From a virus (lineage: Duplodnaviria; Heunggongvirae; Uroviricota; Caudoviricetes): DNA of 26,412 bases. The notes below the pieces were generated by a model. The model saw only the letters and a list, made by a program, of their open reading frames with translations. It was not told the origin of the DNA and made no database searches. Location of the stretch: positions 1-26,412 of the IMG/VR virus record IMGVR_UViG_2529292890_000002; one strand, given 5' to 3'. A program made the position numbers and the translations under genes. This document shows positions 1-4,474 of this stretch, in pieces (position 1 is the stretch's first letter; every line of letters begins with the position of its first letter).

Positions 1-106
1 GGGGGGGGGGGGGTTTTTTTTATCAGGTACTTAGAAAAAATCCCTTATAAATCAACCCTTCTTGCAACAGCCATAAGCAGTTACAAGAAGGATATAGCGT
101 TACGGG

Positions 107-126
107 TGTAGACAAGATGTAGACAA
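107..126. promoter_or_regulatory. Tandem direct repeat TGTAGACAA (107-115 and 118-126), 11 bp apart, just past the int stop; candidate integrase arm-type binding sites of the attachment region
   Basis: Exact 9-bp repeat seen in sequence at one helical-turn spacing, starting about 5 bp after the int stop codon (132-134 on plus). Confidence 0.35.
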
Positions 127-131
127 CATTG

Positions 132-1112
132 TCACACCGCCAGCCCGCCGCCAAGAGGGTTTAACGTTACTGCGTGTTGCAGATAATCGGGGGCCAGGTG
201 AGCATAAACCATCGTCTGTTGTATGCTGGCGTGCCCAAGAATTTGCTGTAACGCAATAATGTTTCCCCCGTTCATCATGAACCAGCTTGCGAACGTATGC
301 CGAAGCACATGCGTGGCCTGCCCGCGTGGTAAATCGGGCTTAACCTGTCTGAGCCGTTCGCAGAAGTTTTCATAATCAACTTTGAACAGTGGCCCGGTGT
401 CGCTGGTCTTGATCTCTTTCTCCAGTTCTTCCGATATCGGAACCGTGCGTTTTTTCCCGTTTTTGGTCTTAAGGAACGTTACGCGCCCGTGATTTACCTG
501 CTCGCCTCGCAGCGTGCTTCCTTCGCCCCAGCGTGCGCCGGTGCTGAGGCATAGCAGTGCCACGCGTCGATCGTCGCCGGTCAGAGTATCCAGCAATTTG
601 CTGATCTCAGATTTAGCGAGATAAGTCATAGCTGGCGGCGCTTCTTTCAGTGGTTCCAGACCCTTACAGGGGTTTTCCTTCCTGAACTCTTCCAGCTTTA
701 TCAACGTGCTGAACATCCCGGATAAGCGGTAAATATCACGGTTGATCGTTGCTGCGCTGATACCGTCCTCCAGCCGTTGGCTTCGGTGCTGTGCAATCAT
801 TCGCTTGTTCAGTCGGTTAACGGCTGGATCACCCAGCGCCCTGATTGTTTTATTCAGGTGCCGCTTTTCAATCTCGCCATTTTCCTGAGTCTGTCCATAC
901 AGCAGCCACCAGGTATCTAACAACTCGCTTAAGGTGCGGCGGTCAACGCTCGCGCCCAGCCATTCCTTTTTGTCGGCGTTGGCTAATACATAACGCTCAA
1001 AAAGAACTGCCTCTTGTTTCTTCTCAAATCGCCTGCGGATACGTTTTCCGTTACGTCCGCGCGGCCATACGTCTACTTCATATTGACCACCTTCGAGCTT
1101 CTTAATCGACAT
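132..1112 (-). CDS. int: Tyrosine-type site-specific integrase (P2 Int-like)
   Basis: 326 aa ORF with ATG start and upstream GGAGGG SD; C-terminal catalytic region HVLRHTFAS...GHASIQQTMVYAHL (H-x-x-R, His, Tyr) and upstream TGARWGE arginine box; sits at the prophage end next to the repressor. Confidence 0.9.
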   Translation of the reverse strand: MSIKKLEGGQYEVDVWPRGRNGKRIRRRFEKKQEAVLFERYVLANADKKEWLGASVDRRTLSELLDTWWLLYGQTQENGEIEKRHLNKTIRALGDPAVNRLNKRMIAQHRSQRLEDGISAATINRDIYRLSGMFSTLIKLEEFRKENPCKGLEPLKEAPPAMTYLAKSEISKLLDTLTGDDRRVALLCLSTGARWGEGSTLRGEQVNHGRVTFLKTKNGKKRTVPISEELEKEIKTSDTGPLFKVDYENFCERLRQVKPDLPRGQATHVLRHTFASWFMMNGGNIIALQQILGHASIQQTMVYAHLAPDYLQHAVTLNPLGGGLAV

Positions 1113-1181: not shown

Positions 1182-1502
1182 TTAACCAGTTTGTTTCTCG
1201 GAGCGGTCTGATCCAGTTGACTCTGGCCCAATGTGTGCGAGGGCCGGTGCGATTTGACCAGCTTGAGGGGCGGTCTTATCTGTCATGAGCCAGAGCGTGT
1301 ATTTTGCGAAACGTGAATGCTGAGTGATTTTAAGCAAGATATCGCTACCAATACTCTCCACTCTTCCTGTCTCGTAATACTTCTGCGTGCCAGCAGGTAT
1401 TCCTGTTAATTCAAAGAATTGCTGCCTTGTTAACCCCTCCGCATCCCTGATAGCTCTGATTTTTTCACCCACGCCGCTTGACGGGGTAGGGATCTCTACC
1501 AT
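1182..1502 (-). CDS. C: Immunity repressor (P2 C-like, HTH)
   Basis: Start chosen at ATG 1502 (strong AAGGAG SD 6 nt upstream) rather than the track's 1541; N-terminal HTH-like segment LTRQQFFELTGIPAGTQKYYETG; C-terminus GQIAPALAHIG...SEKQTG resembles the P2 C C-terminus as recalled. Confidence 0.8.
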   Translation of the reverse strand: MVEIPTPSSGVGEKIRAIRDAEGLTRQQFFELTGIPAGTQKYYETGRVESIGSDILLKITQHSRFAKYTLWLMTDKTAPQAGQIAPALAHIGPESTGSDRSEKQTG

Positions 1503-1577
1503 AACATTCTCCTTAAGGGTGGTAATCTCTACCATTAGCAACCGCCAATATAAGCAGTTACAAGCCGAAATAAGCGC
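1492..1577. promoter_or_regulatory. Divergent early control region between C and cox with direct repeats (candidate operators / Cox boxes)
   Basis: 11-bp direct repeat ATCTCTACCAT at 1492-1502 and 1525-1535 (one copy contains the C start codon); ATAAGCA/ATAAGCG repeats at 1550 and 1571, 21 bp apart. Confidence 0.4.
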
Positions 1578-1602: not shown

Positions 1603-1884
1603 ATGACAGAGAAAGATTTAGAGGGGTTCATTGAAGTGCGTCACGCTGTTGACGCGGTTCCATACCCAAAATTTGCCGAATTGATCGGTAAGAAGCCCGC
1701 CACGGTTAAGAGCATGATTGAAGACGGTAAGTTGCCGATCATCCCGTGGAAGAACCCGGAAAGCCTGGGCGCCCGTGCTGAGAACTGGATCTATATTCCT
1801 GAGTTCAACCGCGCAATGCGTGACGCTTACTACAACCGTCCGAGAGAGCAGCGCGATGCTTGGTTGCTGTGGATCGGTCTTTGA
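1603..1884 (+). CDS. cox: Cox-like excisionase / early-promoter repressor
   Basis: 93 aa ORF divergent from C; PYPKFAELIGKKPATVKSMIEDGKLPII and C-terminal RDAWLLWIGL resemble P2 Cox as recalled. Confidence 0.7.
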   Translation: MTEKDLEGFIEVRHAVDAVPYPKFAELIGKKPATVKSMIEDGKLPIIPWKNPESLGARAENWIYIPEFNRAMRDAYYNRPREQRDAWLLWIGL

Positions 1885-2535: not shown

Positions 2536-2629
2536 CAACGCCAGTTAAATAGTAATTAAAAAACTGTCTTCACTGTCGTCACTTAATTAAGTGATGGCGC
2601 TTTCACTCATCCTAAAAAGGATAAATAGC

Positions 2630-3064
2630 ATGTTTAATAAACTGTTTGGAAAAAAAGTAGCAGCGGCAAAAGTTGAACTTAAGAAAGTGGAAAATCGCGA
2701 TCTGATGGAAGCTATTGTCGGCGGTTGCCTTTTGGTATCTGCCGCCGATGGCGAGATCGAAAAAGAAGAAACCAGCAAGCTGGATCAGCTTATCCGCTCT
2801 AACCCGCGCCTTGCGCATTTCGGCAATGAAATCACATCCACCATCAACCGCTATACGGAACAGCTTGAAGCTGGCTTCCGCGTTGGCCGCATGAACATTT
2901 TGCGCGAAATCGACGACATCAAAAACGATCCGAAAGAAGCCGAAGAAGTCTTCGTCAACATGCTGACTATCGCCGAAGCGGACGGCCAGATCGAACCGGA
3001 AGAACAGAAGGTGCTGGAAGAGGTAGGGCGCCGTCTGGGGCTGCGTGTTGAGGATTATCTCTGA
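2630..3064 (+). CDS. TerB-like (tellurite-resistance TerB family) domain protein
   Basis: Start at ATG 2630 (MFNKLFGKK, AGGA SD upstream); two ADG-I-E-EE segments (AADGEIEKEE and AEADGQIEPEE) typical of TerB-family helical proteins as recalled. Confidence 0.55.
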   Translation: MFNKLFGKKVAAAKVELKKVENRDLMEAIVGGCLLVSAADGEIEKEETSKLDQLIRSNPRLAHFGNEITSTINRYTEQLEAGFRVGRMNILREIDDIKNDPKEAEEVFVNMLTIAEADGQIEPEEQKVLEEVGRRLGLRVEDYL

Positions 3065-3502: not shown

Positions 3503-4474
3503 ATGATCCGCCCGTTCATCAAATGGGCAGGGGGTAAAACCCGTGTCCTCCCTGACCTGCTGCCGCATCTTCCTAAAGCTGACTGCCTGATCGAACCGTT
3601 CGTAGGCGGCGCATCGGTATTTCTGGCGACTGAATACCGCCGCTATGTGCTGGCTGATATCAACCAGGATCTTATTAACCTGTATCGGGAAGTCACCCGT
3701 TACCCGGACTTAGTGATCGATGCTGCCCGCGAATTGTTCAACAGTAAGAATAGCCCGCAGGGATACAACGAAGTCCGTGCCGCGTTCAATAAGCAGGTGG
3801 GTACGGTAAAAAGCGGTGGGTTGCGTTATGGCGCTGAAATGGCGTGCATTATGCGCGCTGCTCAATTCCTGTATCTGAATCGCCACGGTTATAACGGCTT
3901 ATGTCGATACAGCCGGAAGACCGGCTTTAACGTGCCGTTTGGCAAGTATAAGAGCGTCTACTTTCCTGAAAATGAAATCCGCCTGTTTTCCGAAAAGGCC
4001 AACGATACAAAAGCAATATTTCTTTGTGCGCCGTTCCAGCGTTCTCTACAGGTCGTCACGGGTGGCGATGTTCTCGTTTACTGCGATCCGCCTTACCTGC
4101 CTGAAAGCAAAACAGCCGATTTTACCCAATACCACACCGAACCATTCACGGAAGGCAACCACCGCCAGTTAGTCCAGGCACTGCTGGAAGTTAACCGTAA
4201 GCATGGCGTGAAGGTCGTCATTTCCAACAGCGATACCGAAGCCACCCGCGCGATTTATCAGCCCTTCAAGATGCACGAAATCAGCGTGCAACGTTCCATC
4301 AGCACCGACAAAGACAACCGCCAGAAGGCCAAAGAAGTGATCGGCGTGCTGCCTGTCTGCGACTGCTGCGGGCGTTACGGCGGCGGTTGCCCTGATTGTG
4401 GCGCCGTGATGGGTGATGCGACTTACAACGCGATGGTTGCGGCGGGCGCGTTTGACGATCTGGAGGCTTTTTAA
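3503..4474 (+). CDS. dam: DNA adenine methyltransferase (Dam-like, N6-adenine class) with Cys-rich C-terminal extension
   Basis: N-terminal FIKWAGGK, then EPFVGGASVF (AdoMet-binding) and catalytic DPPY; C-terminal CDCCGRYGGGCPDCG extension. Confidence 0.85.
   Translation: MIRPFIKWAGGKTRVLPDLLPHLPKADCLIEPFVGGASVFLATEYRRYVLADINQDLINLYREVTRYPDLVIDAARELFNSKNSPQGYNEVRAAFNKQVGTVKSGGLRYGAEMACIMRAAQFLYLNRHGYNGLCRYSRKTGFNVPFGKYKSVYFPENEIRLFSEKANDTKAIFLCAPFQRSLQVVTGGDVLVYCDPPYLPESKTADFTQYHTEPFTEGNHRQLVQALLEVNRKHGVKVVISNSDTEATRAIYQPFKMHEISVQRSISTDKDNRQKAKEVIGVLPVCDCCGRYGGGCPDCGAVMGDATYNAMVAAGAFDDLEAF

Follow-up and report, generated by a model that had tools for sequence, protein, structure and literature searches.

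In phage lambda, the arm and core sites of attP are bridged by a heterobivalent integrase, and the direction of the reaction is set by IHF together with excisionase. The lambda attP holds several IHF sites and five arm sites (P1, P2 and P'1-P'3), the consensus of which is unrelated; Xis and Fis are separate, and there is no detectable sequence relation to the site analysed here. For P2, the binding sites were taken from the annotation of the GenBank record (AF063097), in which the protein_bind features follow the order Int P arm, IHF, Int core, Cox and Int P' arm. Two pairs with an 11-bp period, TGTGGTCAA/TGTGGACGT and TGTGGACAC in two copies, fall inside the two annotated Int arm features of this record. 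The consensus of P2-type arm sites was given as tgTGGaCa by Nilsson et al. (2011), where upper case denotes the conserved bases. In the 186 type, the arm sites are direct repeats flanking the core with the consensus tgccGCCActt, bound by the homologous N-terminal domain (PMC3448106). The prophage of another P2-like phage, WPhi, is located at cpxP-fieF in E. coli W (PMC3032704).

The stretch of DNA analysed in this work, 26,412 nucleotides in length and referred to as the window, can be assigned by sequence similarity to a P2-family prophage or phage (Peduoviridae) of the SEN4/SEN5-like kind. The closest named relatives are the Salmonella phages SEN4/SEN5, which align to 78% of the window at 95.7% identity, and over its first 1.2 kb the window shares 96-98% identity with SEN5, phiT5282H and prophages in 40-odd complete E. 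coli genomes. The sole long open reading frame beside the repeats, at 132..1112 on the minus strand, encodes a P2-family heterobivalent tyrosine integrase of 326 aa with Trp at residue 16 (Pfam Int_N 8.9e-33, Phage_integrase 2.1e-19), which shares 67% identity with WPhi Int along the full 326 residues. Past int the order of genes is a C-type repressor, cox and then reading frames in P2-like order, and the far end of the window consists of tail genes. The immunity repressor (HTH) was annotated as an open reading frame at 1182..1541 on the minus strand with a weak HTH_31 match; its true start is probably near window position 1502, as judged from relatives annotating a 321-bp gene at the homologous place. 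The cox gene at 1603..1884 on the plus strand (93 aa, Pfam Phage_Cox 2.1e-23), a homologue of the excision directionality factor and Pc repressor, gives a product 54% identical to WPhi Cox. Further along, the reading frame at 2591-3064 corresponds to a gene annotated in relatives as a TerB-family (tellurite-resistance-like) protein and that at 3503-4474 to an annotated DNA adenine methylase gene. A tRNA scan of the window found none, indicating that the target of integration is not a tRNA gene.

The 131-bp non-coding stretch adjoining int revealed two exact copies of TGTAGACAA on the plus strand, a core-proximal one at 107-115 and an int-proximal one at 118-126, with 11 bp from start to start. 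The copies are separated by GA; the first is preceded by GGG and the second is followed by CATTG and then TCA, the end of the second copy being 5 bp from the int stop codon (132-134). The original prediction had described tandem direct repeats at these positions, 11 bp apart and about 5 bp from the int stop, and was exact on the sequence as read. It is very probable that the pair represents the arm-type Int sites on the P' arm of the att site of a P2-family prophage that is SEN4/SEN5-like and uses the target of WPhi. The core-proximal copy is invariant in relatives, lies 82 bp from the core end and is homologous to the P2 P' arm site. A pattern scan of positions 1-400 for promoters and terminators found none, so the repeats do not belong to any promoter or intrinsic terminator that can be recognised.

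The occurrence of such a pair by count was compared with block shuffles of the window. The window has one exact 9-mer that recurs 10-12 bp further on, against a mean of 0.33 in the shuffles, and 71 of the 300 shuffles had at least one such repeat. The window-wide chance of a pair of this kind is thus not negligible, and statistics alone make the pair unremarkable; these same counts are what would favour a chance or neutral 11-bp tandem duplication without function. Loose matches to the 9-mer were likewise not enriched across the window (5 observed against 3.4 expected). Against a duplication of this kind stands the conservation of the block, as none of the 20 positions at 107-126 was variable while 31 of the 82 in the spacer at 25-106 were (Fisher p = 3e-4), in a set of 18 distinct sequences belonging to the same clade. 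The relatives from IMG/VR comprised 71 loci, most of which end exactly at the int stop, and about 18 of them were informative for the arm. The heptamer TGTAGAC has no further occurrence anywhere in the 26.4-kb window outside the pair, and this uniqueness, the non-coding site abutting int and the invariance of the block together argue that the pair is not due to chance. A second pair on the other arm and homologous pairs at the same spacing in WPhi, SI7 and P2, described below, bear in the same direction. The explanation by chance duplication was effectively refuted by the conservation and the second pair, and its probability is practically negligible.

The attachment core and the target of the prophage were located by aligning phage attP with prophage junctions in E. 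coli. A 45-bp core, CACCATCCCTGTCTTCCCCCACATGATGTGGGGGTTTTTTTTATC, was found to be common to attP (SEN5, phiT5282H), attL, attR and attB, and the recombination crossover lies somewhere within it. This core is the terminator of cpxP, a hairpin with a T-run about 25 bp past the cpxP stop. The int-proximal junction adjoins cpxP in E. coli 730V1 and CX12, and the far junction of the 730V1 prophage adjoins fieF. The empty attB rebuilt from the two bacterial flanks and one core gave a 100% match to E. coli genomes over 445 bp, and the uninterrupted 445-bp empty site was present in 4592 of the 5426 complete E. coli genomes. A genome had at most 4 places matching attB. Some 15% of the complete genomes searched have no uninterrupted cpxP-fieF site and appear to carry an insertion at the terminator. 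The core is also identical in WPhi (AJ245959), hence the same attB, as well as in SI7 and NC_070904. At least three Int lineages (WPhi, SI7 and SEN4-like) use the same core.

Comparison of attP, attL and attR placed the last 16 bp of this core (GGGGGTTTTTTTTATC) at window positions 9..24, so that the other 29 bp would be upstream of the window. The att core and the prophage boundary had been placed, as probable, just upstream of the window; this would hold for the 29 bp but not for the last 16 bp, which are inside. With the core ending at position 24, the boundary of the prophage lies across the start of the window, partly inside it, and bacterial DNA is never reached by the window itself. The window opens with a run of 13 G, of which positions 9-13 match the G5 of the core, and positions 1-8 read GGGGGGGG where all 19 of the 19 relatives compared have CATGATGT. 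This poly-G at 1-8 looks like an artefact of sequencing or assembly rather than biology, at the end of a contig that broke inside the duplicated att core, and the sequence expected in its place is CACCATCCCTGTCTTCCCCCACATGATGTGGGGG. The repeats and the core fix where the prophage ends on the int side and where it inserts, namely at the cpxP terminator, the attB of WPhi.

The two copies of the core in 730V1 were found to differ, the attL reading G4T10 and the attR reading G5T8. This difference is either homopolymer noise or a marker of strand exchange to the right of the G/T boundary. In E. coli SZQ1 (NZ_CP173996.1, 4588496-4620568), two tandem copies of the prophage were observed at cpxP-fieF, and where the two meet, a full attP carrying both pairs of arm sites is restored.

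As the window holds one arm only, the other arm and the bacterial flank were read from relatives that are 95-98% identical in the region. The P arm was found to carry TGTAGTCAA-aa-TGTAGACGA, with an 11-bp period and in the same orientation as the P' pair, in the attP of SEN5, phiT5282H and SZQ1 and in the attR of 730V1. A matching repeat had been anticipated at the far end of the prophage or in the attP of relatives, and this pair provides it. In the intact attP copies (SEN5, phiT5282H and SZQ1), the P pair starts 196 bp before the P' pair. A repeat search of the SEN5 attP gave the 19-nt units GTGTAGTCAAAATGTAGAC and GTGTAGACAAGATGTAGAC, which are 196 bp apart and 89% identical. The layout of attP is P pair, 49 bp, 45-bp core, 82 bp and P' pair, and it is the same in SEN5, phiT5282H, SZQ1, WPhi and SI7; the P' spacer is 82 bp in every relative compared. 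A second prophage end within the window was sought with the 9-mer and the heptamer, and no other copy was obtained. The assignment of the repeats as arm-type Int sites, made in the original prediction, is supported at the level of sequence by the pair on the other arm and by homology to the annotated Int sites of P2.

The attachment site was then compared with that of WPhi, which also has four direct copies with an 11-bp period and an int transcribed towards attP, as in the present lineage. The geometry of WPhi and SI7 is equal base for base (49 bp, core, 82 bp and 196 bp start to start), and the first P' copy of SI7, TGTGGACAC, is exactly 82 bp from the core end like that of WPhi and the present one. 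The arm sites of WPhi read TGTGGAC (TGTGGACAC in two copies, TGTGGACGC and TGTGGACAG) whereas those of the present lineage read TGTAGAC, and the P' pair of WPhi ends 13 bp from the int stop compared to 5 bp here. The P' spacer of WPhi has the element AAGGGACTGGA at the place homologous to ATAAGCAGTTACAAG of the window. The record NC_070904.1, although labelled 'Escherichia virus P2', contains the WPhi-type core, WPhi arm sites and an int of 981 bp (326 codons); in the att region it is WPhi-like and unlike canonical P2 (AF063097), which has an int of 337 codons.

The order of elements in P2 is as in the present attP, where the IHF and Cox sites are predicted from sequence, with two direct copies per arm at an 11-bp period, and the search for related arm sites in P2-like phages returned TGTGGAC pairs at homologous places in P2, WPhi and SI7. 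The P-arm pair of P2, TGTGGTCAA/TGTGGACGT, is nearly the same in sequence as TGTAGTCAA/TGTAGACGA of the present lineage, and the block AAATCCTTTTAT at the P2 IHF site is also kept in the P arm of the relatives of this lineage. P2 differs in its core, annotated as 27-28 bp, and in the distance from the annotated core end to the pair, which is 87 bp compared to 82 bp here. Its P' sites are inside the 3' end of the longer int (337 codons), unlike the non-coding pair of the window.

The sequence of the arm sites revealed a further difference. All four arm copies of the lineage (TGTAGACA, TGTAGTCA) read TGTAGAC with A at base 4, where P2 has G, and the P2-class consensus is therefore mismatched at its conserved position 4 (A for G). 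The 186 type has a different motif and different residues in the N domain, its integrases usually target tRNA genes, and its core motif GCCAC was not found in window positions 1-131. By their motif the present arm sites form a third class, neither P2 nor 186, which is found with Trp/Tyr16 integrases. Residue 16 of Int, encoded by the codon at window positions 1065-1067 on the minus strand, is Trp here compared to Arg in WPhi, SI7 and P2. The same residue was flagged by Nilsson et al. as 'R vs Y at alignment position 21', a discriminator of P2 and 186 (PMC3448106).

The covariation of the motif with Int was tabulated for about 90-100 loci from viral and genome collections, using residues 11/14/16 and the hexamers within 250 bp downstream of int; the loci from the genome collection were the best 80 of 536 matches. 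The residues x/Asp/Arg (28 loci) occurred with GTGGWC and never with GTAGWC, while x/Asp/Trp or Tyr (30 loci from Enterobacteriaceae, Vibrionaceae and one Pseudomonadales MAG) occurred with GTAGWC, Trp/Asp/Gln (2 loci) with GTTGWC and Trp/Glu/Tyr (17 loci) with pairs of the 186-type GYCGCCA, these counts being phylogenetically non-independent with roughly three independent lineages having an aromatic residue 16. The loci from Vibrio and Pseudomonadales have the motif in inverted orientation, 64-68 bp from the int stop. A motif that tracks residue 16 is to be expected of repeats recognised by the Int N-terminal domain, and this argues against their being read by another protein.

The other protein to be considered is Cox, and the repeats could be sites of this excisionase, the recombination directionality factor, rather than of Int. 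The sites of recombination directionality factors are described as typically direct repeats one DNA turn apart (PMC7498355), which agrees with the arrangement of the pair, and the Cox footprint of P2 abuts the P' arm Int site and overlaps it by a few bp. However, Cox must also bind the Pe-Pc switch, and TGTAGAC is absent there and elsewhere in the window; the element common to the P' spacer and the switch is ATAAGCAGTTACAAG. The motif is moreover present on both arms, like Int arm sites, and it follows Int residue 16 across the 90-100 or so loci. On the basis of the switch without TGTAGAC, the motif on both arms and the residue-16 covariation, the reading of the repeats as Cox sites was rejected and is hardly credible.

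The repeats are separated from the core by a P' arm spacer of 82 bp at 25..106, which is a predicted Cox-binding region from its homology with the Cox footprint annotated in P2. The exact 15-mer ATAAGCAGTTACAAG at 73..87 on the plus strand occurs again at 1550..1564 on the plus strand in the switch region, which separates the repressor gene from cox. Each place also has a weaker second copy of this candidate Cox box, ATATAGCGTTAC at 92-103 in the spacer and ATAAGCGCCTAG at 1570-1581 in the switch region. The chance expectation of a 15-mer in both segments (82 and 111 bp) is about 2e-5 (82 x 111 x 2 / 4^15). The sharing of the 15-mer by spacer and switch is kept in phiT5282H, SZQ1, 730V1 and CX12, and at 14 of 15 bases in SEN5. 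As a control, WPhi was found to have a different 11-mer, AAGGGACTGGA, common to the homologous place of its spacer and the annotated Pe-Pc region. It is likely from this sharing that ATAAGCAGTTACAAG is the Cox box and that the spacer rather than the TGTAGACAA pair holds the Cox sites, in accordance with the P2 annotation.

The candidate Cox box is overlapped by an inverted repeat, CCTTCTTGCAAC / GTTACAAGAAGG, at 57-68 / 79-90. Three relatives (L043, L049 and L054) showed T61C together with A85G, and L054 also C65T, the symmetry being kept or improved. The inverted repeat may serve as a dyad for protein binding or fold into a hairpin in RNA or DNA. The IHF consensus WATCAANNNNTTR was sought by eye in the P' spacer and no clean match was found; AAATCAACCCTTCT in the spacer has two mismatches in the TTR part of the consensus. 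Just past the P-arm sites, in the region homologous to the IHF site of P2, the sequence TTAGAATAACTCCTTT was observed (1426-1441 of the relative L001). The sequence TTAGAAAAAATCCCTT (1523-1538 of L001, which is 31-46 of the window), just past the core on the P' side, is 81% identical to it, and this likeness may mark a second IHF-like or A-tract bending element.

The effect of the repeats at the RNA level was also considered, as UUGUCUACA is present twice in the 3' UTR of int and a hairpin with the last int codons might stabilise or autoregulate the int mRNA. P2 Int reportedly regulates its own expression post-transcriptionally. The minus-strand RNA of positions 60-140 folded better than 200 of 200 shuffles (-25.9 kcal/mol, z = -4.6), and in one hairpin of this fold the repeat is paired to the final codons of int (GGUGUGACAA). 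The other hairpin is the inverted repeat at 57-68 / 79-90, where the changes in the three relatives are compensatory. The z value is, however, partly driven by the separate inverted repeat at 57-90, and the P-arm copies of the motif are not downstream of int. The partner stretch at 129-138 is coding, and it varies without compensation (position 135 in the relatives L017 and L043); the covariation is thus unsupportive of a pairing of the repeats with the 3'-terminal int codons, and this hairpin was set aside. A main action of the repeats in RNA has a very small probability, and an RNA role would be at most a secondary function added to DNA binding.

For the repeats as arm-type Int sites, we infer that they are bound by Int, that IHF and Cox act in the complex and that residue 16 contacts base 4. 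By analogy with P2 and lambda, the N-terminal domain of Int (about residues 1-55) would bind each copy of TGTAGACAA, and the copies, being one helical turn apart, lie on one face of the helix. These Int protomers would also hold the core via the central and catalytic domains, and the intasome would be completed by the P-arm pair TGTAGTCAA/TGTAGACGA, the P arm bent by IHF and Cox in the P' spacer. After integration the P' pair would stay with int at attL, the junction present in the window, where together with Cox bound beside it the pair would form half of the excision complex. The arm sites of the SEN4/5 lineage are without earlier description, and att is not mentioned in the SEN4/5 paper; the kind of feature is otherwise textbook biology. 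The rule of thumb that direct repeats beside a P2-type int are arm sites works for this locus.

With the association between base 4 and residue 16, the discriminator of Nilsson et al. (2011) covers further classes, and the association could guide the engineering of arm specificity. It is possible, though on balance slightly doubtful, that residue 16 in the N-terminal domain of Int directly recognises base 4 of the arm sites, with Arg pairing with G, Trp/Tyr with A and Gln with T, in which case the SEN4-like arm sites would be orthogonal to those of WPhi. If this is true, the WPhi and SEN4-like lineages could compete for one site or stand in tandem at it without cross-assembled intasomes, and one residue and one base would provide a handle to re-programme the arm specificity of heterobivalent integrases.
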